A stretch of 24,000 nt of DNA from Allomuricauda sp. d1 (GCF_039592695.1 NZ_JBBUTK010000003.1:564244-588243), one strand, 5' to 3'; counted from the stretch's first letter, positions 9,225-24,000 are shown. Notes: a model not told the origin generated them from the letters alone. Numbers and translations: made by a program.

Positions 9225-11021
9225 ATGAAAAAGATTCGAAATTTCTGCATTATTGCCCATATCGACCATGGTAAAAGCACGTTGGCCGACCGATTATTGG
9301 ATTATACAGGTTCTGTGACCGAACGCGAAAAAAAAGAGCAATTGCTCGACAGTATGGACTTGGAGCGTGAACGCGGCATCACCATCAAGAGCCATGCGAT
9401 TCAGATGGAATACCAATACGATGGCGACACCTATATCTTGAATCTTATCGATACTCCCGGGCACGTTGATTTTTCGTATGAGGTATCCCGTTCGATTGCG
9501 GCCTGCGAAGGGGCACTATTGGTGGTCGATGCAGCCCAGAGTATTCAGGCACAGACCATTTCAAACCTGTATTTGGCTTTGGAAAATGATCTCGAAATCA
9601 TTCCTGTGCTGAATAAGGTGGATCTGCCCAGTGCGAATCCTGAAGAGGTGACCGATGATATTGTTGATTTATTGGGATGCAAGCCCGAAGAGGTCATTCC
9701 TGCAAGCGCAAAAACCGGTATCGGTATAGATGACATTTTGAAAGCAATCATTGAACGAATTCCGGCACCAGAAGGAAATGAAGAGGGGCCACTACAAGCC
9801 TTGGTCTTTGATTCAGTCTACAATCCCTTTCGGGGTGTCGAAACTTATTTCAGGGTGCTTAACGGATCTATCAAAAAAGGCCAGAAAATCAAGTTTATGG
9901 CCACGGGCAAAAGCTATTTTGCCGATGAGATCGGCACCTTGAAGTTGACACAACATCCCAAACAAGAAATAAAGACCGGTGATGTAGGCTATTTGATCAC
10001 AGGCATCAAAGATGCGAGGGAGGTTAAGGTTGGGGATACCATCACTTTGTCAGAAAACCCGGCTACAGCGGCCATTTCTGGGTTTGAAGATGTAAAGCCG
10101 ATGGTTTTTGCGGGAATTTATCCTGTTGATACCGAGGATTATGAAGAGCTGCGCTCTTCGATGGAAAAACTGCAACTGAACGATGCTTCTTTAGTGTTCA
10201 CTCCCGAAAGCAGTGCGGCTCTTGGGTTCGGGTTCCGCTGTGGGTTTTTGGGGATGCTGCACATGGAAATCATTCAAGAGCGTTTGGAGCGCGAGTTTGA
10301 TATGACCGTCATCACCACTGTGCCCAACGTGAGCTATCATGCTTTCACTACCAAAGACCCAGAAGAAGTGGTCACTGTAAACAACCCTTCCGATCTGCCC
10401 GACCCATCAACACTTGACCGCGTTGAAGAACCCTACATCAAGGCCACTATCATTACCAAGTCTGATTTTGTCGGCAATGTAATGTCGCTCTGTATTGACA
10501 AACGTGGCCAGATTACCAATCAGACCTATCTGACCACTGAGCGCGTTGAGCTTACTTTTGATATGCCCCTCGCCGAAATCGTTTTTGATTTTTACGACCG
10601 CCTAAAAACAGTTTCGAAAGGCTATGCGTCTTTTGACTATTCCCCCATTGGGATGCGTACCTCAAAATTGGTTCGGGTAGACATCCTTCTGAATGCGCAA
10701 CCCGTAGATGCCCTTTCTGCTCTGGTACATTTTGACAATGCCCATACGATAGGCAAGAGAATGTGCGAAAAACTAAAAGAACTCATTCCCAGACAGCAAT
10801 TTGACATCCCTATTCAGGCAGCCATTGGCTCAAAAATAATCTCTCGTGAGACCATCAAGGCCTTGCGAAAAGACGTAACGGCAAAATGTTATGGGGGCGA
10901 TATTTCACGAAAGAGAAAACTGCTCGAAAAACAGAAAAAGGGTAAAAAGCGTATGCGTCAGGTCGGTAATGTTGAGATTCCACAACAGGCCTTTATGGCG
11001 GTGCTCAAGTTGAACGATTAA
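9225..11021 (+). CDS. lepA: translation elongation factor 4 (LepA)
   Basis: [34 protein letters not shown] and a C-terminal LepA-specific domain ending [10 protein letters not shown]. The identification is unambiguous. Confidence 0.97.
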
Positions 11022-12874
11022 TCTGCGACTTCTTCTTTGCTGGCCAATATGTCAACATTAAACATTTTACCGAGATAGACCAATTTATACCCTTCATCAA
11101 TATCGGTAAATTCTTTGCTGAAAGATGAAATGATTTTTAAATCTCCCTGCTTGTCTTTTAAAAAAATGGGGATTATATGTTCGTCTGCTTTGGTAATCTC
11201 GATAAGGCCATCATATTGTTCTTTGTCCTTAAGTTCAATTTCATTGATGGCTGGATATTTTCTAACGGCTTCCGTCAGTTTGATAAAATCATCGGTATGG
11301 GAAAAGAGCCCCTCTTCCGGATTGTTTTCGGGGTTGTTCATTTCGTCTGTGTTGACCAGCCTAAAGGCCCCATTTTCACCAAATTGCTTTTTGAACTTTT
11401 CAATGGCAAACTTGTTGATATCCGAATTGCCCGTCAGGGCCATCAAGTAGCCCATATCGTTCAATTCAATATTATCGGTCAACGTGTCTGAATAGATGTC
11501 GGCTGCAATGGCCTCGACTCCCAATTTTTTTGCTTTTTCAACATTGGTCTGGTTATTGTCGATAAGTACCACATGGCGCTTGTTTTTCTTCAGATAACCT
11601 GCAATCAGCCTTGAGACTTTTGAGGCGCCTATTATCAAAATGCCCTCTGACTTTGTTAAAAACACTCCCACTAACCGGGCAAAAAGCCTAGCAGTAGTAG
11701 CGTTGAGAAGCACGGTGCCCAATACGACCATAAACACCAGTGGGGTAATGTATTCTGCCCCGGGCTCGCCTTTTGCAAGCAGTTTAGAACCGAAAAGCGA
11801 TGCAATACCGGCAGCCACGATACCCCTTGGCCCCACCCAGCCGATAAACATTTTTTCGTTAAGCTTCAGATTCGAACCTTGTGTGCTCAAAAACACCCCA
11901 AGAGGCCGAATCAGAAATACAATGACAAGAAAAAGGGCAGCGGTCTTCCAGTTGTAGATGAGCTGCATGTCTGAAATATCAATGTTCGCGGCAAGAAGTA
12001 TAAAAAGAATGGATATCAATAGAACGCTCAACGATTCTTTAAAATAGAGCAGTTCTTTAAGGTTTGGCAGGTCTATGTTCCCCATGACCATTCCCATGAC
12101 CACTACCGCAAGTAGGCCCGATTCATGCGCAAAGAGATCTGATTCAACGAAAACCAACAAGACCACCGATAATGAAACCACATTCATTAGATAATGGGGT
12201 ATCCAGTTTTTCTTGATGACAAAGGCGAGGCCGTGGGCAAAGGTGAAGCCGAAAGTGAAGCCGAAAAGCAATATTTTTCCGAACTCTATCAAAGCCGTTT
12301 TTGTAAAGGCACTGCCTTCGCCAACACTGATAAATTCAAACACCAAAACTGCTACTAACGCCCCGATGGGGTCAATCAAGATGCCTTCCCATTTTAGCAC
12401 TGCCGAAACATCTTTTTTGAGTGGTATGTTACGAAGAATGGGTGTAATTACTGTGGGCCCTGTAACGATAATTAAGGCAGAGAACAAAAACGATATCTGC
12501 CACGACAAGTCAAAAATGTAATGTGCTGCGATACCTGCCCCAAAAAAAGTAACCAATGTGCCAATGGTAATCAACTTTGTGATTACGGGGCCAACATTGG
12601 CAATTTCAGAACGTTTTAAGGTCAACCCGCCTTCAAAAAGTATGATACTGATTGCAAGTGACACAAAATAATAGAGGCCATCACCAGGAAAAAGACCTTT
12701 TTTACCATTCCAAATGGGCTCAATGAGCTTGCTGCCATCTGCGGTATAAAGCGTTGCGATTGGCCCGACCAAGAGCCCGATCAAAATCAGGGGTAAGATT
12801 GCGGGCAACTTCAATCGCCAAGCGACCCATTGTGCGATGATTCCAAGTATAATGATTCCCGCTAATTCGAGCAT
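11018..12874 (-). CDS. cation:proton antiporter (Na+/H+ exchanger family) with C-terminal TrkA-N/RCK-like domain
   Basis: About 12 TM helices, followed by a Rossmann-like segment [31 protein letters not shown] place the start at ATG 12874 ([11 protein letters not shown]). The 27 upstream codons of the ORF track (to 12955) look non-coding. Confidence 0.8.
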
Positions 12875-13027
12875 GGTGGTATTTTTTCGAAATTTACAGT
12901 TTTCTTTAAAATATCCTTGCCCATATCCGGGCTTTCTGAATTTGTTAAAATACAAATAATAAAACGGTGTATTATAACCATTTGCGGTACAGTTTTCTTA
13001 TTTTGCGCATCCTTTTGCCCATTTTGA

Positions 13028-13900
13028 ATGCAGCTATACCCCATTGAGACCGGTAATTTCAAGTTAGATGGCGGGGCCATGTTCGGTGTCGTGCCAAAAT
13101 CGTTGTGGAACAGGACCAATCCTTCAGATGCCAACAACATGATTGAACTGGCCATGCGCTGCCTTCTGATCGAAGATGGCGATCGACTTATCTTAATCGA
13201 CAACGGGCTTGGCAACAAGCAATCAGAGAAATTTTTCGGTTATTACCATTTATGGGGAGACCATTCTTTGGATAAATCCCTAAAAAAACATGGTTTTCAC
13301 CGCGATGACATCACCGATGTATTCATGACCCACTTACACTTTGACCATTGCGGGGGCAGTATTCAATGGAACAAAGACCGAACAGGCTACGAACCTGCTT
13401 TTAAAAATGCCCGGTTTTGGACAAACGAAGACCATTGGCAATGGGCGTTGGAACCCAATCAAAGGGAAAAGGCCTCCTTTCTGAAAGAGAACCTGCTTCC
13501 GATGCAAGAAAGTGGTCAATTAAACTTCATAAAAAAGGCACAGGCCCCGTATTTGAATTGCTCTGATCTCGATTTTGGCATTTTATTTGTAAACGGCCAT
13601 ACCGAAAAACAGATGTTGCCACATATCAAATACAAAGGAAAAACCGTGGTCTTTGTGGCAGATTTGATTCCAACAGTGGGGCATATTCCTTTGCCTTATG
13701 TCATGGGCTACGATATGCGGCCTTTGGTCACATTGGATGAAAAAGGCACATTTTTGAACGAAGCCGCAGAAAAAGGGTATGTGCTATTTTTTGAACATGA
13801 TGCACACAACGAAATGTGCACCTTAAAAAGAACGGAAAAAGGGGTGCGGTTGGATCAGACTTTCAAATTTGAAGAAGTGTTTGCTGCTTCCTCCTTATAA
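13028..13900 (+). CDS. MBL-fold metallo-hydrolase
   Basis: The HxHxDH motif is present as THLHFDHCGG, with downstream His and Asp ligands (NGHTEKQ, FVADL, FEHD). 290 aa. Confidence 0.75.
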   Translation: MQLYPIETGNFKLDGGAMFGVVPKSLWNRTNPSDANNMIELAMRCLLIEDGDRLILIDNGLGNKQSEKFFGYYHLWGDHSLDKSLKKHGFHRDDITDVFMTHLHFDHCGGSIQWNKDRTGYEPAFKNARFWTNEDHWQWALEPNQREKASFLKENLLPMQESGQLNFIKKAQAPYLNCSDLDFGILFVNGHTEKQMLPHIKYKGKTVVFVADLIPTVGHIPLPYVMGYDMRPLVTLDEKGTFLNEAAEKGYVLFFEHDAHNEMCTLKRTEKGVRLDQTFKFEEVFAASSL

Positions 13901-13914
13901 ATTAAACATGCAAG

Positions 13915-15558
13915 ATGATAAGACAATTTAAACCTTCTATTTCAATTTTAGCAGCAATACTGCTTTCGGGGTGTGGCGCAACTGCCTTGGTTTCCACTCC
14001 CGTTGAAAATATAGATGCCGTACCGCTTAAAGTATCTGATTTGACAGAGGCCCAGGAAAAGACCTGGGGGCATGCCGATTTGGTGCAAGACACCATTCCT
14101 GGTATGAGTGTTGATCGGGCCTATGCCGAAATCATAAAAAACAAAAAGGGCAAAACGGTGATTGTGGCCGTGTTGGATTCTGGTATCGACCTTGACCACG
14201 AAGACCTTGATGATGTGCTGTGGACGAACAAAGACGAAAAGCCGGGCAATGGCAAAGATGATGATGGCAATGGCTATGTAGACGACATTCACGGGTACAA
14301 TTTTTTGGGTGAGGCCTATAACGAGCAATTGGAGTACACCCGAATGCTCCGGTTGGGGGTTGGTACCGCTGCAGAGAGGGCAAAAGCACAATTGAAACTG
14401 GACAAGGAATACCCAGAAGCTTTGCAAAACAAACAGCAGTATGAGCAAATATTACAAGTCGTAAAAAATGCAGATGCCGCTGTCAAGGAAGCATTGGGAA
14501 AGGATTCGTACACCAAAAAAGATGTCATGGGCATCGAGGCCAACACCACTGAAATGCAGCAACATGTTGCTGTATTGACCCAAATGTACGGTTACGAAGA
14601 CAGTATTGACAAAGTGCTCGAGCAGCTTGAAGAAGGGGTTGCCTATTTCACCGAGCAGGTGAACTACAATCTGAACAAAGATTTTAATGGGCGTGAAGTT
14701 GTGGGTGATAATCCTTATGATTATAACGACCGTGATTATGGAAACGGCAACCCCGACAGCAGGCTCGAAGACGAAAGCCATGGCACCCATGTTGCCGGCA
14801 TCATCGCGGCAGAAAGAAACAACGGCCTTGGTGCGAACGGGGTAGCCAAGAACGTTGAAATTATGAGCATTCGTGCCGTGCCCAATGGTGATGAGTATGA
14901 TAAAGACATTGCGCTGGGCATTCGCTATGCCGTCGACAATGGCGCAAAGATTATCAACTGCAGTTTCGGAAAATCATTTTCGCCAAATGCTGAATGGGTT
15001 TATGAGGCCATAAAATATGCAGCTGTCAACGATGTGCTTATCGTTCATGCGGCGGGCAATGATGGCAATGACATCGATGATCAATCCAATCCAAACTATC
15101 CGAACGATCATCGCTTTGGCAGTAATGAAATTGCTGATAACCTGATCACGGTAGGGGCTTTGACCAGTAACTATGGCTCAGAGATGGTCGCAACGTTCTC
15201 CAACTATGGAAAAAACAATGTGGATGTCTTTGCGCCAGGTGACGATATCTACTCAACAATGCCAAACAATGCGTACGATTTTAACGGTGGCACCTCTATG
15301 GCGGCACCAGCTGTTGCGGGTATTGCCGCGTTGATCCGTTCGTATTATCCCAATCTGACCGCTCCAGAGGTCAAGCATATTTTAATGCAATCCGGATTAA
15401 AATCTAAAGCCTCAGTGGTTGTTTCTGGCGACCCGAACAAATCAAAGTCCTTTTCAGAAATTTCAAAATCGGGCAAAATGGTCAATGCCTACAATGCGCT
15501 CTTAATGGCCGATAGCGTCTCAAAAGGAAGTAAAACCCTTGATTACAATGCTGAATGA
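13915..15558 (+). CDS. S8-family (subtilisin-like) serine peptidase, probable lipoprotein
   Basis: Lipobox LLSGCGA. The catalytic triad motifs are VAVLDSGID (Asp), HGTHVAGIIAA (His) and GGTSMAAPAVAGIAAL (Ser). Confidence 0.88.
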   Translation: MIRQFKPSISILAAILLSGCGATALVSTPVENIDAVPLKVSDLTEAQEKTWGHADLVQDTIPGMSVDRAYAEIIKNKKGKTVIVAVLDSGIDLDHEDLDDVLWTNKDEKPGNGKDDDGNGYVDDIHGYNFLGEAYNEQLEYTRMLRLGVGTAAERAKAQLKLDKEYPEALQNKQQYEQILQVVKNADAAVKEALGKDSYTKKDVMGIEANTTEMQQHVAVLTQMYGYEDSIDKVLEQLEEGVAYFTEQVNYNLNKDFNGREVVGDNPYDYNDRDYGNGNPDSRLEDESHGTHVAGIIAAERNNGLGANGVAKNVEIMSIRAVPNGDEYDKDIALGIRYAVDNGAKIINCSFGKSFSPNAEWVYEAIKYAAVNDVLIVHAAGNDGNDIDDQSNPNYPNDHRFGSNEIADNLITVGALTSNYGSEMVATFSNYGKNNVDVFAPGDDIYSTMPNNAYDFNGGTSMAAPAVAGIAALIRSYYPNLTAPEVKHILMQSGLKSKASVVVSGDPNKSKSFSEISKSGKMVNAYNALLMADSVSKGSKTLDYNAE

Positions 15559-15559
15559 T

Positions 15560-17413
15560 ATGAAGTTAGCCAAACAACTGATCGCTTCCGTTCTTTTACT
15601 TTCCATGCCTTCCGTAACTGCCCAAAAAGGGCCTTGTTATTGGCAACAGCATGTGGATTACCAAATGGATGTCACTATGGATGTGGAGACCTTTCAATAT
15701 GACGGCACCCAAAAGTTGGTGTACACCAACAACTCGCCTGATACGTTGAACCGTGTGTTTTACCACCTTTATTTCAATGCCTTTCAACCCGGAAGTGAAA
15801 TGGACATGCGATTGCAGACCATCAAAGATGGTGACGGACGAATGCTCGAGGACGGTAAAAGCCGTATCGCTACTTTGGCAACTGAAGAGCAAGGTTATCT
15901 GCACGTGCAAGCATTGACCCAAGACGGGCAAAAGGTCTCGTTCAGCGAAGAAGGTACCATTTTGGTGGTCGACTTGGCGACCCCGATTGCGCCCGGGGCG
16001 AAGACCAAATTCGATATGGAGTTCAAGGGCCAAGTGCCCTTGCAAATTCGCCGTTCGGGCAGAAACAGCAAAGAAGGGGTGGCACTCTCAATGAGCCAGT
16101 GGTATCCTAAAATGGTGGAATACGATTTTGAGGGTTGGCACCCGAATCCGTACATCGCTCGTGAGTTCCATGGGGTTTGGGGTGACTTTGATGTCAAGAT
16201 CACCATTGACAAAGACTATACGATAGGTGGTACGGGGTATTTGCAAAATCCGCAAGAAATAGGCCATGGCTACGAAGCCGAAGGCAGAAAGGTCAAGACC
16301 AAGGGAAAAACCCTGACGTGGCATTTTAAAGCGCCCATGGTTCACGATTTTATGTGGGGGGCCGATCCAGAGTATGTTCACGATGTGGTTGAGATGGAAA
16401 ACGGACCTACATTACATTTTTTCTATAAAGACAAACCTGAATTGCTTGAAAACTGGAAAAACCTACAGCCCAAGACTGTTGATGCCATGAATTTTTTCAA
16501 TAAAAATATTGGCGAATATCCTTACGAACAATATTCTGTGGTTCAGGGCGGTGATGGCGGAATGGAATATGCCATGAGCACCCTAATCACTGGTGAACGC
16601 TCTTTTGGCAGTCTGGTCGGGGTCATGGTGCATGAGCTGGCGCATTCTTGGTTTCAACATGTGCTTGCCACCAATGAATCAAAACATTCATGGATGGATG
16701 AAGGGTTTACTTCGTTCATCAGCAGCCTTTGCATGAACGAAATCATGGAGCAGAACAAAGACTTTCCGTTTGAGGGATCCTACAAGGGTTATTACGCCCT
16801 CGTGAATTCAGGTAAAGAACAGCCACAGACCGCCCATGCCGATCGATATGACCTGAATTTTGCCTATGGCATTGCGGCATACAGCAAAGGGGCCATCTTT
16901 TTGTCGCAATTGGGCTACGTGATCGGGCAAGACAAGTTGTTGCAGACCATCAGAAAATATTATGAGGATTACAAGTTCACGCATCCCGTTCCGAACGACA
17001 TTAAAAGAACGGCAGAAAAAGTGTCCGGCATGCAATTGGACTGGTACCTGACGGATTGGACACAGACCACCAACACCATCGATTACGGAATCAAAGAGGT
17101 GGTTTCCAACGGAGACACATCAACATTGGTCATGGAGCGCATTGGCTTGATGCCCATGCCATTGGATATTCTTGTGGTCGATACCGATGGCAACCAGCAA
17201 ACCTACTATGTTCCTCTAAGGATGATGCGCGGAGAGAAAGAGAATCCATATCCAAACATACAACGAACCGTTGCCGAAGATTGGGCGTGGGCATCCCCTA
17301 CTTATGAACTGATCCTTGATATGCCAAAGGGCAACATTGCCGGTATCTCCATCGATCCATCGATGTTGATGGCCGATGTGAATCGTGAGAACAATACGTA
17401 TAGCGGGGAGTAA
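15560..17413 (+). CDS. M1-family zinc metallopeptidase (gluzincin)
   Basis: HELAHSWF followed by WMDEGF (HExxH-x18-E). Signal peptide MKLAKQLIASVLLLSMPSVTAQ. The ATG at 15560 lies 1 nt after the S8 stop. Confidence 0.82.
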   Translation: MKLAKQLIASVLLLSMPSVTAQKGPCYWQQHVDYQMDVTMDVETFQYDGTQKLVYTNNSPDTLNRVFYHLYFNAFQPGSEMDMRLQTIKDGDGRMLEDGKSRIATLATEEQGYLHVQALTQDGQKVSFSEEGTILVVDLATPIAPGAKTKFDMEFKGQVPLQIRRSGRNSKEGVALSMSQWYPKMVEYDFEGWHPNPYIAREFHGVWGDFDVKITIDKDYTIGGTGYLQNPQEIGHGYEAEGRKVKTKGKTLTWHFKAPMVHDFMWGADPEYVHDVVEMENGPTLHFFYKDKPELLENWKNLQPKTVDAMNFFNKNIGEYPYEQYSVVQGGDGGMEYAMSTLITGERSFGSLVGVMVHELAHSWFQHVLATNESKHSWMDEGFTSFISSLCMNEIMEQNKDFPFEGSYKGYYALVNSGKEQPQTAHADRYDLNFAYGIAAYSKGAIFLSQLGYVIGQDKLLQTIRKYYEDYKFTHPVPNDIKRTAEKVSGMQLDWYLTDWTQTTNTIDYGIKEVVSNGDTSTLVMERIGLMPMPLDILVVDTDGNQQTYYVPLRMMRGEKENPYPNIQRTVAEDWAWASPTYELILDMPKGNIAGISIDPSMLMADVNRENNTYSGE

Positions 17414-17569: not shown

Positions 17570-18397
17570 GTGCCAAAAAATAAAATCATACCGTACAATC
17601 CCAAGCTAAAGGAATATGCCCGTCAATTGCGTAAAAACAGCACCTTGTCAGAGACATTGCTTTGGCAAAGCATAAAAAACAGGGCGCTTGGGGTGCAGTT
17701 TCATCGTCAAGTGCCCCTACTTGAATATATTGTCGATTTTTATTGCCATGAAATTAAACTGGCCATCGAAATAGACGGTGATTCACATGAATACCGTTAC
17801 GAACAAGATGCTAAACGTCAAGGTGAGTTGGAAAAAAGAGGGGTTGAATTCATCCGGTTTTCAGACAATACGGTTAAAAATGATATGTTCAGCGTGCTGT
17901 TGGCGTTGGAGGAAAAGCTTAAAAATCTTGTGGAAAACACCCCCCTTGATCCTAACTCAAAGGGGGGGTCAAGAATAGCTTCACCAACATCCCCCTTCCT
18001 CCCCCCTCAAGGGGGGAATAAGTTTCCAAAAAAAGAAAGGCTGAAATCACAAAAGCTTATTGAACAGGTTTTTTTGGATGGAAAGGCCGTGACCCAATTC
18101 CCCATAAAACTTATCTATCTCAAACATGGGCTGATAGCGTCGCCCACCGTACAGGCCGGTTTTGTCGCCCCAAAGAAAAACTTTAAAAGTGCCGTCAAGC
18201 GCAACCGTATCAAACGCCTGCTCAGAGAGACGTACCGCCTCAATAAGCATACCCTTTTTAACAACATAGAGGGAAATTATGCGTTGATGATTTTATATCT
18301 TGGGAAGGAGTTGCCACAGTACAAGGCCATAGAGGAAAAAATGGTGGCCGTGTTGGGCGCATTCATAAAAAAAGTCTCAAATGAAGAACGTACGTAA
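17570..18397 (+). CDS. rnpA: single 275-codon ORF: N-terminal DUF559 (Vsr-like endonuclease-fold) domain fused in frame to the RNase P protein component
   Basis: Residues 1-~120 (IPYNPKLKEYARQLRKNSTLSETLLW...YIVDFYCHEIKLAIEIDGDSH...GVEFIRFSDNTV) are typical DUF559. From ~18020 onward (FPKKERLKSQKLIEQVF...FKSAVKRNRIKRLLRE) the sequence is typical RnpA. There is no stop codon between the two parts and no ATG at the usual RnpA start. The only in-frame alternative start nearby is GTG at 17930. Confidence 0.75.
   Translation: MPKNKIIPYNPKLKEYARQLRKNSTLSETLLWQSIKNRALGVQFHRQVPLLEYIVDFYCHEIKLAIEIDGDSHEYRYEQDAKRQGELEKRGVEFIRFSDNTVKNDMFSVLLALEEKLKNLVENTPLDPNSKGGSRIASPTSPFLPPQGGNKFPKKERLKSQKLIEQVFLDGKAVTQFPIKLIYLKHGLIASPTVQAGFVAPKKNFKSAVKRNRIKRLLRETYRLNKHTLFNNIEGNYALMILYLGKELPQYKAIEEKMVAVLGAFIKKVSNEERT
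17940..18016. repeat. G/C palindromes on the right flank of the DUF559 domain: CCCCCCTTGA-TCCTAAC-TCAAAGGGGGGG and CCCCCC-TCAA-GGGGGG
   Basis: Hairpins at 17940-17968 and 18001-18016. They lie inside the ORF and encode the linker TPLDPNSKGG...LPPQGG. Confidence 0.6.
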
Positions 18398-20016: not shown

Positions 20017-21084
20017 CTACAACGCGTCTAAAGGACTGGTGATCTTTGAAAGGCTTCTGGGGGTGACCTTGGTGTACACCTGGGTCGTTTTTATAGAGTT
20101 ATGCCCCAACAATTCTTGAATAAAGCGCATATCGGCCCCAGATTCCAGCAAATGGGTGGCATAGCTGTGGCGAAGGCCGTGAATGCCGATAGTTTTATGA
20201 ACACCCGCCTTTCTCATGGCCGTTTTAAAGACATTTTGCACACTGACCTTGGCATATTGACCCCCATATTGCCCTTCCAACAGATAATTCTGAGGACGGT
20301 ACTCTAGGTAATACCTTCTCAATAGCGGTAAAAGACTTACGGGAAGCGGTACATACCTGTCCTTTTTTCCTTTGGCACCTCGAATGTGCACCATCATACG
20401 CTCACTGTCGATGTCACCAATCTTCAGGTTTACCACTTCTGACACCCGTAGCCCCATGCCATAGGCCAGTTGTAGGGCCACAAGATGTTTTATGTTTGAT
20501 GTTACCGAGAGTATTCTCTTGACCTCATTCTTGCTCAGTGCCTTTGGCAGCACTTGGGGTTTTTTGGGCCTGGGAATGTCAAAAAACATTTTTGGCCGAT
20601 GCAGCACCTGTTCATAATAAAACTTAATGGCATTGATTTTACCATTAAGTTTTCGTTCAGCCATCTGCTCTTTTTGCACACAATACAGAAAATAGTCTTT
20701 TAGCCGCTTGGGGGTCATTTTTTCAACAGGAAAATCTTTTAAAAGCAGTAGCAGATGGTAGAACTCGCTTAAATATTGTTTGATGGTGTTCTGACTGTAC
20801 TGTTTTAGTTTCAATTGTTCATGCATTGAAACATACGCTTGGCGATTGACTTGGTTCACTTTTGACAGTTTTGAACCGATTGTGGGTTTGGGCCCAAGTT
20901 GAAGTGCCTTTCGCACGCTAGGCAAGTCTGGCAGGTACCATGCTTTTTTGGTCTTGCTCCATTTTGCAGAAGGAAATCTTGACCTCAACGCCTCTTGCAG
21001 ATTTTTATCAAACACAAAGCGAACCTGAATGATCGGTCGACCTCGATGCTGGCCAAAGGAGAAGTGATATTTTGAAAAATCCAC
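20017..21084 (-). CDS. tyrosine-type site-specific recombinase (XerC/D-like catalytic domain with a Bacteroidota-type N-terminal domain); not a canonical IntI
   Basis: Catalytic residues are present: GLRVSE (Arg I), HGLRHSYATHLL (His-x-x-Arg) and LLGHNSIKTTQVYTKV (His/Tyr). There is a SAM-like core-binding domain (TIKQYLSEFYHLL). The N-terminus HRGRPIIQVRFVFD...KWSKTKKAWYLP is seen in many Bacteroidota integrases. GTG start at 21084. The spacing between GAKGKKDR and HGLRHS is too short to hold the IntI-specific additional domain. Confidence 0.9.
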   Translation of the reverse strand: MDFSKYHFSFGQHRGRPIIQVRFVFDKNLQEALRSRFPSAKWSKTKKAWYLPDLPSVRKALQLGPKPTIGSKLSKVNQVNRQAYVSMHEQLKLKQYSQNTIKQYLSEFYHLLLLLKDFPVEKMTPKRLKDYFLYCVQKEQMAERKLNGKINAIKFYYEQVLHRPKMFFDIPRPKKPQVLPKALSKNEVKRILSVTSNIKHLVALQLAYGMGLRVSEVVNLKIGDIDSERMMVHIRGAKGKKDRYVPLPVSLLPLLRRYYLEYRPQNYLLEGQYGGQYAKVSVQNVFKTAMRKAGVHKTIGIHGLRHSYATHLLESGADMRFIQELLGHNSIKTTQVYTKVTPRSLSKITSPLDAL

Positions 21085-21235
21085 TTAGGTGTTTTGTATA
21101 TCTTCTTTTCAAAGATATATGTTTTATATACAAAATGCCCAACACAATGATGTATTTATATTTTGCGTTATTATTGCGATACAAAAGAATATAAGTACTT
21201 TAGGGTGGGTTATATAAAACTACACCTATTTACGT
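21085..21235. promoter_or_regulatory. attI-like / divergent promoter region with nested palindromes
   Basis: TTTTGTATAT (21092-21101) pairs with ATATACAAAA (21126-21135), with inner ATATCTT (21098-21104) / AAGATAT (21112-21118). There is an imperfect inverted repeat GTATTTATATTTTG (21152-21165) / CAAAAGAATATAAGTAC (21182-21198). The region ends at the first G|TTAGGC junction. Confidence 0.5.
21110..21117 (-). promoter_or_regulatory. candidate -7 box (TATCTTTG on the minus strand) for the recombinase gene
   Basis: Exact TAnnTTTG match on the minus strand, 25 nt upstream of the GTG start at 21084, embedded in the palindrome. Motif match only. Confidence 0.3.
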
Positions 21236-21247
21236 GTTAGGCAACAT

Positions 21248-21985
21248 ATGAGACAACTTAACATTCACGAATTGGAAAGCAAAACGCACGACTATTTTTT
21301 GGACGTGGAATATGCCCAGCATAATGACGTGAAAAATAAGTTAACTCAACTAATGAATTTTTTGAGCAGCCAAGATATATCCAAGAACATTCTAGAGAGG
21401 ATAAAAGAAGATTACAATGATTTATATCAAAAACTTGACCCCCTTAATGACCAATCCCCAGAAAGAACCAAAAGAGATATTATAGAACAACTTTTAACAC
21501 CAGACCACCAAGGAGCCTTTGGATATTTTCTCATTGAAAAGAAGTTCAAAGAGCCAAGAAAAGTTTCTCAACATTATATCGATTTATCCTGGAAGTGGTA
21601 CAGTCGAGGACATAATTATAATGAACAACAAGATGGTTTTAATTTCTATTTTTTAAAACCTTTTAAAGAGTTATTCGACTGGTATTTATCTGAAAGTCAA
21701 ACCGAAAAGGAATCGGACTTTTTTTCATATAAAAGTCAAGAAAAAGTCTTTGAAAAATTAGATAACCTTGAGGAAATGCTAACAAAACAAGGATTTGGAC
21801 AAGGGATAATCTTTAATGAAATTGAGGAACTAAAGGAATTGACTAAAAAGCTGAATAAAAAAAATTGGAGTGAAATCATTAAAGGTAAGTTCGTGGACTT
21901 AGCCTTAGGAGGTATTCTAACAAAAGAAGCTGCAATCAAAGCAATTGAATTCCTAACTGGAACGGAACTGAATTTATTAAAATAA
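21248..21985 (+). CDS. cassette 1 ORF: hypothetical protein, 245 aa, no family recognised
   Basis: Clean ATG-to-TAA ORF that starts 12 nt after the junction. It is AT-rich, rich in Lys, Glu and Asn, and predicted soluble and helical. No motifs I can name. Confidence 0.7.
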   Translation: MRQLNIHELESKTHDYFLDVEYAQHNDVKNKLTQLMNFLSSQDISKNILERIKEDYNDLYQKLDPLNDQSPERTKRDIIEQLLTPDHQGAFGYFLIEKKFKEPRKVSQHYIDLSWKWYSRGHNYNEQQDGFNFYFLKPFKELFDWYLSESQTEKESDFFSYKSQEKVFEKLDNLEEMLTKQGFGQGIIFNEIEELKELTKKLNKKNWSEIIKGKFVDLALGGILTKEAAIKAIEFLTGTELNLLK

Positions 21986-21989
21986 ATAC

Positions 21990-22120
21990 GTTGCCTAACA
22001 ATGGCTATAATTCAGCTTTGCCCTCTGCCCTACTTGAAAATCTATATCTTTAAATCGGCTGGATTTCGAAGCTGGAAAATCCCGTTGGGATTTCCCAAGC
22101 CGAAATCATAGCCGAGACCG
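21990..22120 (+). repeat. attC-like recombination site of cassette 1 (~131 bp imperfect hairpin)
   Basis: GTTGCCTAAC (21990-21999) is the reverse complement of GTTAGGCAAC (21236-21245). GGCTATAATTCAGCTT (22003-22018) pairs imperfectly with AAGCCGAAATCATAGCC (22097-22113). An inner hairpin lies at 22074-22095. The site ends GAGACCG|TT. Confidence 0.7.
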
Positions 22121-22143
22121 TTGTGGGTAATGTTGACCAACCA

Positions 22144-22980
22144 ATGGAAATAAACGAACAAGCAAAATATATTGACCATTTTTTAAGAGAATTATATAAT
22201 TCATCTTTTGCTACATCATTAGCAATGGGAATTGAAATGAAACAATTACCAAGTCAACAGAACAAAGAGAAATTTAAGACATTAGAATACATCTTGGAAG
22301 AATTAGAATTGGTCGAATTTGTGCTTGGAAGAGATAATTCAACTTTGAGCGGACAATGTGAATATCACATAAGTGGGAAAGGTCGTGAGCTGGTCGAAAG
22401 AAACGAATCAAGTATTGGATTACTTTTAGAAAGAGAAATTCAAAATGTGACAAAAAATAATCCTTTGTTTGACGACAAAGAATGGGATAAATATTATGAC
22501 CGACTTCTTGAAAAAAGAGCTGACCAAGCAGATTTTTTTCTTGATATGATAATTGAGAAGAAACTCATAAATCTTGACAAATCTACATTGAGAAAATATT
22601 TTAAAGAATGGTTCAAAGAAAATCAAGAATTCGATTTACAAATAAAGAATGGAGATTTGGCAATAGAAGATGGTGATTTACAAACTGTACCTGACTTCAG
22701 CGAAGAAAACATACCTGAATTTATTAAATGGTTTCAGGAAAAAGGAAATGAATTTATGGACTTTCTAAAAGAAAAAGGGTTAAGTGTTCAAGAAAACTCA
22801 AAAGAACAGATTATTAACCAAGGAAATCTTATAATAAACAAGGATTCTAAAATTAAAACTCAATCCATTGGAGAAGAAAAAGAACAAAAAGAATCGAATT
22901 GGAATAAAACAAACGTTATCATAGCTTTAGTAGTTGGAATAGCGACAATTATAGGTGTGATTTGGCAAATAATAGGATAA
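22144..22980 (+). CDS. cassette 2 ORF: hypothetical tail-anchored membrane protein, ~278 aa
   Basis: The ORF is open from GTG 22123, which lies inside the junction core, but ATG 22144 (MEINEQAKY) is more plausible. There is a single C-terminal TM helix, NVIIALVVGIATIIGVIWQIIG. AT-rich, and no family recognised. Confidence 0.7.
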   Translation: MEINEQAKYIDHFLRELYNSSFATSLAMGIEMKQLPSQQNKEKFKTLEYILEELELVEFVLGRDNSTLSGQCEYHISGKGRELVERNESSIGLLLEREIQNVTKNNPLFDDKEWDKYYDRLLEKRADQADFFLDMIIEKKLINLDKSTLRKYFKEWFKENQEFDLQIKNGDLAIEDGDLQTVPDFSEENIPEFIKWFQEKGNEFMDFLKEKGLSVQENSKEQIINQGNLIINKDSKIKTQSIGEEKEQKESNWNKTNVIIALVVGIATIIGVIWQIIG

Positions 22981-22987
22981 AAAACAC

Positions 22988-23117
22988 TACCCACAACAAC
23001 GTGTATAGCTCATTGCGGCTCTAATGGTTATTTGAATCTATTTTCCTACAAACAATCTTTACATTCTTCGGAATAAAACGTACCTTAAATCCCGCAACGA
23101 AGCCATACACAATACCG
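22988..23117 (+). repeat. attC-like recombination site of cassette 2 (~130 bp imperfect hairpin)
   Basis: TACCCACAAC (22988-22997) is the reverse complement of GTTGTGGGTA (22120-22129). GTGTATAGCTCATTGCGG (23001-23018) pairs with CCGCAACGAAGCCATACAC (23092-23110). An inner ATTC-TTCG-GAAT hairpin lies at 23063-23074. The 3-nt versus 6-nt internal loop is the same as in site 1. Confidence 0.7.
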
Positions 23118-23470
23118 ATGATGTCGAATACGCCTGCGGCGTACTTTTGCTGCACTGCTGGCGCAGTCACCGCACCAAAAGCGAGTCGACATCATCGCCG
23201 CGCTATGCCAGATTGCAAAGACCGCAGGATAAGGGACATTCTTGACAATATCGCCGCAACGGCTCAACTACTCGACATATCGGGACGCTATATGCAATCT
23301 GGTCGACTGATTTTATTCCCAATACCGCAAAATCCACAAGGAAACGTCCGCTGGTGCGGACTCCTTGGCGAACAATGCCGCAGGGTAAACCCGATGCCAA
23401 TCCCAGCGGCATTGTTGAAAGGATTTTGCTATATTTCCATAAAATCCGCCGGACTTCACATAGCGCGGCG
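23118..23470 (+). other. cassette 3: GC-rich, repeat-dense unit without a convincing ORF (possible ncRNA, decayed cassette or stack of recombination-site remnants)
   Basis: It is bounded by junctions G|ATGATGTCGA (23117) and GCGCGGCG|TTGTGG (23470). Several internal inverted and direct repeats are listed in the findings. The composition is clearly more GC-rich than both neighbours. Confidence 0.55.
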
Positions 23471-23487
23471 TTGTGGTTAATTTTCCA

Positions 23488-24000
23488 ATGAAAGGACTGC
23501 TTAAAACAATTTCGGAAAAAGCTATTGAACTTCAGGATTTTTCATATTCCGAAGAGCAAATCCAGCATAAATGGCTAGGGACAAAACCCGTAACGGAAAA
23601 TGAACTTGAATCAATTGAAAAAAGGTTGGGAATTCAATTACCAGAGGACTATATCAATTTTCTGAAAATAACCAATGGATTTTCAGCTCCAAACCTTGTG
23701 GAACCGACTTTTGAGCCTTTTTGGAAAATTGACTTTCTTAAAGAAGTGGACAACTTCATAATCGAAGTTTGGAAGAAAAATGGACTTACCGAAATTGGAA
23801 AAAATCTTGAAAGCAGCATTATAGTCGGAGGAATTGAAGAAGAACAATACTTTTTACTAATTCCACCCGAAAAGGCAAATGACAACTGGAAATATTGGAA
23901 ATTCAGTTCATGGCAACCAGGGGAGGACGAATATGAAAACCTTCAGGACTATTTTGAAAAGGTTCTGGAATTTACACTTGACGAACTAGAACATAAATAA
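23488..24000 (+). CDS. cassette 4 ORF: SMI1/KNR4 (SUKH-1) family protein, the family used as immunity proteins of polymorphic toxin systems
   Basis: ELESIEKRLGIQLPEDYINFLKITNGF is the hallmark SMI1_KNR4 N-terminal motif, and the size (~170 aa) fits. ATG at 23488, 18 nt after the junction. The TAA stop occupies 23998-24000. No toxin gene is adjacent. Confidence 0.85.
   Translation: MKGLLKTISEKAIELQDFSYSEEQIQHKWLGTKPVTENELESIEKRLGIQLPEDYINFLKITNGFSAPNLVEPTFEPFWKIDFLKEVDNFIIEVWKKNGLTEIGKNLESSIIVGGIEEEQYFLLIPPEKANDNWKYWKFSSWQPGEDEYENLQDYFEKVLEFTLDELEHK

Follow-up and report, generated by a model that had tools for sequence, protein, structure and literature searches.

Can a tyrosine recombinase without the insertion that is specific to integron integrases (IntI) build an ordered array of gene cassettes? 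The question is raised by positions 20017 to 24000 of a 24,000-nucleotide stretch of Allomuricauda sp. d1 DNA (NZ_JBBUTK010000003.1:564244-588243; hereafter, the window), where a 151-bp spacer separates a minus-strand recombinase gene from a plus-strand array of four co-oriented cassettes (Table 1). The original prediction read this locus by integron logic, with each unit entering as a circle by recombination inside a hairpin site, so that the site is split and its outer half travels with the next unit. We conclude that the locus is likely to be a chromosomal platform for gene cassettes, with the mode of operation of an integron. The placement of the inverted pairs at the cassette boundaries, together with their recurrence in relatives, is decisive and carries the argument.

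Table 1. Features of the recombinase locus and its cassette array (window coordinates)
Feature	Position	Strand	Basis
Tyrosine recombinase, 355 aa, GTG start	20017-21084	minus	Open reading frame (ORF) call and domain matches
Conserved palindrome at recombinase start codon	21085-21142	unassigned	Inverted repeat, kept in ~40 related loci
Candidate outward promoter, Bacteroidota type (Pc analogue)	21174-21203	plus	Motif conserved in ~40 platforms
attI-like insertion site, end ...TATTTACGTG|	21216-21236	plus	Junction between G21236 and T21237
Cassette 1: ORF 21248-21985 (245 aa) and site 21990-22120	21237-22120	plus	Model match, inverted pair, homologues
Cassette 2: ORF 22144-22980 (278 aa) and site 22988-23117	22121-23117	plus	Model match, exact pair
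Cassette 3: ORF-less, wholly structured	23118-23470	plus	Two hairpins, copies in related arrays
Cassette 4, incomplete: ORF 23488-24000, SMI1/KNR4 (SUKH)	23471-24000	plus	Start TTGTGGTTAATTT; site beyond window

The first 10 to 14 nt of a cassette are the reverse complement of the sequence that directly follows its own cargo. The three inverted pairs on which the original prediction was built are exact (cassette 1, 21236-21245 GTTAGGCAAC and 21990-21999 GTTGCCTAAC; cassette 2, 22120-22129 GTTGTGGGTA and 22988-22997 TACCCACAAC; unit 3, 23117-23127 GATGATGTCGA and 23186-23196 TCGACATCATC), and the junctions at 21236, 22120, 23117, and 23470 read as it had given them, all being G|TT except one G|AT. 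Its description of every complete unit as an ORF plus an inverse pair holds for the pairs in all three units, but unit 3 has no ORF between its arms. The cassette ORFs are also, as proposed, lower in G+C than housekeeping DNA (29 to 37% versus 41 to 51% elsewhere in the window).

A scan of one genome per species yielded 79 loci (1.09 Mb), ~45 of them from Flavobacteriaceae with recombinases 60 to 79% identical to that of the window. Where the sequence of a locus reaches far enough, 5 to 10 kb or more of co-oriented ORFs with 100- to 250-nt spacers lie on the start-codon side of the recombinase gene. Synteny among related loci exists only within small locus groups. The S41 peptidase gene, which had been expected to flank the recombinase in relatives too, is not near it in any of the 79 loci, nor is it beside recombinases 80 to 85% identical to the window's.

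The arrays contain 257 exact GTT...AAC inverted pairs, and a context filter kept 130 candidate own-cassette pairs (from ~45 Flavobacteriaceae arrays; a minority are chance matches). Their typical left context is ...ccG|TTRY.....A and their right context ...AAC|AAyGknTATA; we refer to the arm at the cassette junction as R' and to the arm after the cargo as R''. Distances between R'' and the next junction cluster tightly at 127 to 131 nt and have a second mode at ~191 nt, with a few short sites of 48 to 64 nt. The R' consensus, GTTRYNN, fits the integron consensus GTTRRRY only in part. Complementarity reaches ~14 nt, interrupted at position 11 by a conserved A/C mismatch. Other arrays have equivalents of cassette 4, beginning GTTGTGGTTA and ending TAACCACAAC.

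The dedicated covariance model that the original prediction had called for was built from 36 seed sites of ~130 nt, with 17 base pairs (model R1). In the window it has only two matches, both on the plus strand and in the array (cassette 1 site, 21986-22133, E 1.7e-20; cassette 2 site, 22984-23130, E 1e-21), and across the 1.09 Mb of the 79 loci, 118 of its 119 matches lie on the array strand and on the array side of the recombinase. With sites defined by R1 matches, we scored complementarity at seven variable R-box positions and counted at least 6 of 7 as a pass. A cassette start and the next downstream R'', its own, passed in 67 of 78 cases (47 perfect). By comparison, R'' and the R' physically joined to it passed in 6 of 105, and random pairs in 4%. 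At sites outside the seed set, 26 of 34 own pairs passed, and the own pairs of an independent locus fetched later (L083) scored 6, 7, 7, and 5; most failures coincide with an overlooked site of a different class. The split-site signature thus extends over ~45 related arrays, the non-seed sites, and the later locus, and the integron hallmark of a G|TT crossover with a cassette start complementing its own R'' is present in this family, with homology breakpoints, described below, also at G|TT.

We joined each site to its own cassette start, which reconstructs the circular junction, and folded the result. The fold consists of a 10-bp R stem, an asymmetric internal loop (2 to 3 nt versus 5 to 6 nt), and, inward, a 6- to 7-bp L stem, two 3- to 4-bp stems with single mismatches between, and a variable tip. 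Ten of 13 inner-stem pairs show compensatory changes in the alignment of the 36 sites. These are attC-like features: an imperfect palindrome with R''/L''/L'/R' order, an unpaired spacer, and an AAC...GTT core. The folding energy of the sites lies 6.9 standard deviations below that of shuffles (z = -6.9), and the bottom strand folds more stably in 48 of 50 sites, by a mean bottom-minus-top difference of -4.0 +/- 1.9 kcal/mol versus +0.2 +/- 2.1 in random array segments. G-T pairs number 246 in bottom-strand folds and 54 in top-strand folds. At position 11 of R', 91% of cassettes have A, and the opposite base is C in 76%; this combination is mismatched in the top strand but can form a wobble pair in the bottom one. 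A search of 20900-24000 against Rfam gave no match at E up to 1; the published attC model is not part of Rfam.

The bottom-strand bias counts against a sense-RNA role of the sites and against a purely duplex site, and it bears on the strongest competing explanation, namely that the same recombinase builds the array on duplex DNA, with the R boxes acting as Xer/dif-like cores (in the manner of pdif modules or by cruciform extrusion) and the hairpin having some other role. Several observations would suit such a mechanism: XerA and IntI models score alike for the recombinase, which is without the insertion by which IntI reads extrahelical bases; the attI-like region has, in its family consensus, an inverted repeat of 8 bp such as duplex core sites typically show; and the inner hairpin varies between homologous cassettes. 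However, the R'' and R' of one site are ~118 nt apart in duplex DNA and meet only when the site is folded, covariation runs over the whole length of the stem, and a G-T bias toward one strand is meaningless for duplex DNA. We therefore consider duplex recombination unlikely, although it is the most probable of the alternatives.

The recombinase has an N-terminal beta-beta-alpha-beta-beta domain (residues ~1 to 60), a SAM-like core-binding domain (87 to 164), and a catalytic domain (182 to 341), with Pfam matches to Phage_integrase (1e-38) and Phage_int_SAM_4. Its sequence is 100% identical to that of a protein from Allomuricauda sp. d1. R213, K238, H302, R305, H328, and Y337, which are invariant in 38 homologues, are by our assignment the putative catalytic residues. 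In alignment with VchIntIA (2a3v; IntI4), the match falls into two stretches that skip residues ~211 to 246 of VchIntIA, the IntI insertion; the IntI-specific additional domain near patch III is thus absent, as the original prediction had it. In its AlphaFold model (mean predicted local distance difference test score, 85), the best match among Protein Data Bank (PDB) chains is VchIntIA (2a3v; E 7e-17), with XerA next. The protein scores below every curated family cutoff, the XerC, XerD, and XerA equivalogs included (NCBIfam bits/cutoff: XerA_Arch, 205/220; integron integrase TIGR02249, 197/265, in two stretches; XerC, 178/335; XerD, 174/330). The N-terminal domain (residues 1 to 60), though confidently predicted, matches no Pfam family and no PDB fold. 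The ~85-aa N-terminal extension is real, but its designation as Bacteroidota type is unsupported, because it also occurs in a clostridial homologue, as well as in Cytophagia homologues. The Melioribacteraceae recombinase lacks the extension, and the array at that locus still bears R1-type sites. The N-terminal domain, or other surfaces, may replace the IntI insertion, and the N-terminal domain may have a role in recognition.

In a second alternative, the array is a true attC cluster that a canonical IntI from another locus has left behind or serves in trans, and the adjacent recombinase is a bystander. The sites resemble attC in their G|TT crossover, R''/L''/L'/R' layout, and length, and integrase-less attC clusters are common in other phyla (PMC4889954). 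The IntegronFinder papers state that recombinases without the IntI-specific region beside attC sites "are not IntI" (PMC4889954) and co-localize with fewer than three sites. Against a bystander stand the position of the recombinase, ~150 nt from the first junction, with conserved motifs, in most of ~40 platforms, the restriction of sites to the array side of the recombinase, and the persistence of the recombinase-site pairing on a plasmid and in Bacteroides. Moreover, surveys have found almost no IntI or integrons in Bacteroidetes (PMC9024848). We regard service in trans as improbable and the adjacent recombinase as, with good probability, the catalyst.

Comparison of cassettes between genomes bears on whether they move. 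Cassette 1 has protein homologues that are 83 to 90% identical (Croceitalea marina, 90%; Maribacter dokdonensis, 86%), in genomes whose recombinases are just ~67 to 70% identical to that of the window. DNA homology of cassette 1 runs from 21236, exactly at G|TTAGGCAAC, to ~22002, just past R'' GTTGCCTAAC. Upstream of G|TTAGGCAAC lies the attI-like TATTTACGTG in the window versus unrelated attC-type ends, ...GAACCG| and ...AAAACCG|, in the other two genomes. In C. marina the R'/R'' pair of cassette 1 also encloses a second gene, of the DUF416 family. Two other cassettes are common to different genera at ~91% nucleotide identity, and in one cassette shared between genera homology begins 7 nt before the junction, with different neighbors. 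As far as sequence comparison can show it, at least one cassette of the window (cassette 1) has been mobile. These breakpoints, like the covarying, bottom-strand-biased hairpin sites, are what integron logic had led one to expect.

The same observations leave little room for a third possibility, that each ORF is an invertible segment of the shufflon or inverton kind and not a mobile cassette. Each ORF is indeed bracketed by a 10- to 14-nt inverted repeat beside a tyrosine recombinase, and invertible segments are common in Bacteroidota. Nevertheless, nearly all long array ORFs are co-oriented, the repeat sequence is individual to each cassette, and the same cassette occurs at varied positions with varied neighbors and with breakpoints at G|TT; inversion is accordingly very improbable. 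Hardly worth entertaining is the idea that the hairpins are terminators or repeats of the REP (repetitive extragenic palindrome) or MITE (miniature inverted-repeat transposable element) kind in an ordinary accessory island, because, although it would suit repeated, structured sites that lie between genes and share their orientation, it leaves unexplained both the complementarity between cassette start and own distal end and the exclusive link to the recombinase, and the antisense-strand folding bias goes against a sense-RNA role.

The ~150-bp palindrome-rich region that had been noted between recombinase and array proved to be the 151-bp spacer, and the palindrome in it is conserved (arms 21085-21101 and 21126-21142; family consensus in ~40 loci, ATTTTGTATATCA-N25-TGATATACAAAAT). 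It may act as an operator or as an accessory binding site. The LexA box in integrons couples integrase expression to a signal, and by analogy the candidate operator could do the same for this recombinase. Directed into the array, 33 nt upstream of the first junction, is a putative promoter motif (TTG at 21174-21176, a 19-nt spacer, and TACTTTAG at 21196-21203, TAnnTTnG), of which TAttTT.g is kept in ~40 aligned platforms and which resembles the Bacteroides -33/-7 promoter consensus; its promoter function is suggested by this likeness. A sigma-70 promoter and terminator scan, a tool ill suited to Bacteroidota, gave no enrichment. The attI-like end has the consensus TATtTAcGTG|TT, and most loci have their first junction ~150 nt away from the start of the recombinase; in other arrays this end is joined to G|ATGATG. 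Cassette ORFs begin 12 to 24 nt past the junction, and no conserved promoter motif was seen in that gap.

Based on these features, we propose that the divergent Xer/IntI-related recombinase would insert circular promoterless cassettes at a fixed attI-like site (...TATTTACGTG|TT) that lies 150 nt ahead of the recombinase start codon, and that excision would proceed by recombination between the hairpin sites that separate cassettes. Each site is a ~130-nt imperfect palindrome, whose outer R stem pairs R''...AAC with G|TT...R' and whose interior holds an asymmetric unpaired spacer (AAY opposite RARACC) and the covarying inner L stems. Strand exchange is predicted between the G and the TT of R', and a cassette would therefore begin (5') with the distal half of its own R' and finish (3') with R'' and the remaining hairpin. 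For cassette 1, the predicted circle junction reads ...GCCGAGACCG|TTAGGCAAC. The bottom strand, in folded form, is the most likely substrate of recombination; that this substrate is single-stranded we hold to be somewhat more probable than the converse, with less assurance than the identity of the catalyst. The cassettes would probably be transcribed from the platform promoter of Bacteroidota type.

Several points weigh against this interpretation. About 20 further inverted pairs of 10 to 11 nt lie within the same 3-kb stretch, so that the pairs of the window, taken alone, are weak evidence and not beyond chance. The seeds of R1 were picked via exact pairs, a circularity that is controlled by the non-seed sites and later loci only. 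The comparison covers one genome per species. The window ends inside cassette 4, and the closing site of that cassette lies beyond it. A canonical IntI may be present elsewhere in the genome. Support for the platform is drawn from sequence, and no excised circle was observed. The homologues of cassette 1 keep R' and R'' yet differ in the inner hairpin in some genomes (window 21990-22120 versus L085:6740-6811 and L086:6740-6860). The inner part of the site would therefore be exchangeable independently of cargo, which simple whole-site co-transfer does not predict and for which we have no explanation. Finally, the ORF-less cassette has a G|AT junction and a perfect ~22-bp stem without the unpaired spacer, its circular-form R stem running straight into the next stem, and it may therefore move differently.

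This ORF-less unit 3 fills exactly one cassette slot. It consists of hairpin 1 (23117-23196) and hairpin 2 (23197-23470, with the base CGCCGCGCTATG / CATAGCGCGGCG); a 120-aa ORF that overlaps it (23118-23480) matches no family. Fifteen copies emerged from a profile search, every one inside an array, and 7 occupy the first position beside attI, a strong enrichment that suggests very frequent reinsertion or a function there. Copies from several genera show compensatory changes in 20 of 41 predicted pairs. Twelve aligned copies differ by 1- to 2-nt indels, and thus no reading frame is conserved. In all 12 copies the bottom strand folds better, and we therefore reject a sense-RNA reading of the element. 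Possibly it is an empty cassette, selfish or regulatory. Some arrays hold the element twice (L044:3280-3561 and 9568-9850; L022:7833-8113 and 9572-9851; L039:7015-7290 and 9572-9845, minus strand). A different ~450-nt repeat, outside the profile of this element, occurs three times in one Maribacter array (L014, 177-624, 3719-4183, and 7616-8086 in array-oriented coordinates), with copies 90 to 98% identical, one of which adjoins the attI-like site.

What the cassettes carry separates this family from dedicated immunity arrays. The products of ORF1 (cassette 1) and ORF2 (cassette 2) match no Pfam family and no PADLOC defense system; the latter protein has a hydrophobic C-terminal stretch, VIIALVVGIATIIGVIWQIIG, that by eye looks like a membrane helix. 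Cassette 4 encodes the sole immunity-like protein of the window (Pfam SMI1_KNR4, 7.5e-12). The window cassette proteins had no homologue in the 79 arrays first fetched; those of cassette 1 came only via the protein database. Among 136 array proteins compared with Pfam, 130 different families were represented, with counts of 8 for DUF6090, 3 for beta-lactamases, 2 for Eco57I/MmeI-type restriction-modification, and 2 for SUKH. Further cargo includes MerT, HMA, and ArsR metal-resistance domains, cation efflux, and Gp49 with helix-turn-helix proteins, which suggests toxin-antitoxin pairs. This profile fits a chromosomal integron and not a dedicated immunity array. We therefore reject an immunity-array reading of the family on the strength of its generalist cargo (SUKH, 2 of 136).

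Other observations concern the state of the arrays. Insertion sequences (IS; DDE_Tnp_1 and IS110) and a group II intron reverse transcriptase gene lie inside arrays (L086:6829-8406 and 927-2381; L088:13272-14273 and 15738-17054), one IS directly after a cassette R''. Integrons host IS1111-attC elements and group IIC-attC introns. Many assemblies break 40 to 430 nt upstream of the recombinase start codon, where the array begins (L004, L007, L015, L017, L023, L026, L030 to L032, L042, L045, L046, and L080 to L082), as expected for repeat-rich arrays; arrays are therefore systematically under-assembled in short-read genomes and metagenome-assembled genomes. A Flammeovirgaceae locus has a lone R1-type site (L050:17465-17612, plus strand) ~6.4 kb downstream of the recombinase stop codon, preceded by co-oriented low-G+C genes (11294-17347) in which no clear GTT...AAC pairs were seen. 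This site may be degenerate or of a different subtype. Elsewhere in the window (17570-18397, plus strand), a single 275-aa ORF joins a DUF559 endonuclease-like domain (12 to 116) to a complete RNase P protein domain (152 to 260), with no methionine between the two; it is either a real fusion or an in-frame insertion upstream of rnpA. Genes for DUF559 proteins are also found near the arrays in L080 and L085.

Among the closest of the systems already described are the recombinase-associated immunity arrays called rAID-1, a parallel that the original prediction had drawn and that we could substantiate. A protein search of plasmid records found a Bacteroides ovatus record with an rAID-1-type array, where the genes that come after the integrase include SMI1/KNR4, Imm26, PoNe-immunity, and Tdi1. 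This is the one gut Bacteroides rAID-1-type array that we examined. Its recombinase, also without the insertion, is 44% identical to that of the window over residues 89 to 355 of the latter (267 aa; E 1e-66). rAID-1 recombinases have been defined by at least 44% identity (E ~1e-100) to BF9343_RS08045 (10.1101/471110); with the B. ovatus recombinase standing in for that protein, the window recombinase is borderline or below. The spacers of the B. ovatus array (65 to 95 nt) contain R''(...TAAC)-AAG-L''...L'-AAACCA|TTA. The first 9 nt of its cassettes match the reverse complement near their own stop codon in 9 of 11 cases, versus 2 of 121 other combinations, and its reconstructed hairpins have 13 G-T pairs in the bottom strand versus 0 in the top.

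The window and rAID-1 thus share a homologous recombinase and low-G+C co-oriented small genes, including one SUKH cassette in the window, and at the B. ovatus locus also the R''-AAG-L...L-AAACCA|TTA layout, own-cassette complementarity, and bottom-strand G-T bias. The G+C of the window cassette ORFs falls under the 41% limit set for rAID-1 arrays. In contrast, an rAID-1 array follows the stop codon of the recombinase in the same orientation (at least two co-directional genes 3' of it, as at the B. ovatus locus), whereas that of the window is divergent. Sites are ~55 to 60 nt in rAID-1 and ~130 nt here. The rAID-1 cargo is orphan immunity genes in Bacteroidales hosts; one SUKH gene is present among three window ORFs and 2 of 136 proteins are SUKH in its relatives, and Allomuricauda belongs to Flavobacteriales. 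The site analysis in Ross et al. 2019 (10.1101/471110) is confined to motif enrichment and offers no model of junctions or hairpins, and a 2025 rAID preprint does not mention integrons, hairpins, or excision. In the literature searched, which left out subscription-only papers, we found neither a description of Flavobacteriia arrays of this kind nor an rAID model at the level of junctions.

The arrangement recurs in further contexts: on a Chryseobacterium plasmid, four R1-type sites lie in a co-directional array that contains insertions of an IS110 element and a group II intron, and a clostridial locus (Marinisporobacter) has the same pairs. The logic shared with these loci and with B. ovatus makes the window element a divergent, long-site, generalist-cargo member of a broad family, which appears to include rAID-1.

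Likeness to sedentary chromosomal integrons comprises the divergent recombinase and array, the fixed attI-like site beside the recombinase gene, and promoterless, co-oriented, mostly single-gene cassettes with toxin-antitoxin, restriction-modification, and metal and beta-lactam resistance cargo. At the sites, it extends to R''/L''/L'/R' imperfect palindromes with an unpaired central spacer, the G|TT crossover, own-start/own-R'' complementarity, and bottom-strand folding bias. Arrays of both kinds receive IS and group II intron insertions, and VchIntIA is the closest solved structure to the recombinase. In length, sites of the window type resemble Vibrio cholerae repeats. The differences are a recombinase that lacks the IntI insertion, falls below the integron-integrase cutoff, and has an extra N-terminal domain of unmatched fold; an R' that reads GTTRYNN and not GTTRRRY; sites that are more conserved in sequence and form a small number of families, which different genera have in common; and, in some related platforms, a recombinase co-oriented with the array.

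Two other systems are less similar. Acinetobacter plasmid pdif modules have 28-bp duplex sites used by host XerC/D; they too have inverted half-sites at their boundaries and depend for movement on Xer-type tyrosine recombinases, with no IntI of their own. Here, however, a covarying hairpin separates the half-sites by ~118 nt, and a dedicated recombinase lies next to the array in every case. Polyimmunity loci likewise place tandem co-oriented genes beside XerC/D-like recombinases, which have been proposed to accumulate those genes (Zhang et al. 2012, PMC3482391). They have been described at the level of gene neighborhoods only, and the cargo of the window's family is not dominated by immunity genes.

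The platform in the window is probably an integron in function, and it appears to be homologous to rAID-1. The IntI-specific insertion is held to be what lets a tyrosine recombinase use folded attC hairpins. Here, insertion-free recombinases stand beside large ordered arrays that carry every sequence hallmark of hairpin-site cassette capture, in a phylum in which surveys found almost no integrons (PMC9024848). We see the case as evenly balanced for a still wider claim, that a family of integron-like platforms extends across Bacteroidota into Ignavibacteriota and Clostridia, rAID-1 included, and recombines folded single-stranded hairpins at G|TT (A|TT in Bacteroides) through an Xer-like recombinase that never had, or lost, the IntI insertion. 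If this is true, hairpin-site cassette capture evolved twice or predates IntI, structure-specific recognition would come from the N-terminal domain or another surface, and the crossover of rAID-type arrays would fall at CCA|TTA of a ~60-nt hairpin. Model R1 could detect such platforms in other genomes. Marine Flavobacteriaceae would hold an overlooked pool of mobile cassettes, in part plasmid borne, with beta-lactamases, restriction-modification and toxin-antitoxin systems, and metal resistance among its cargo.

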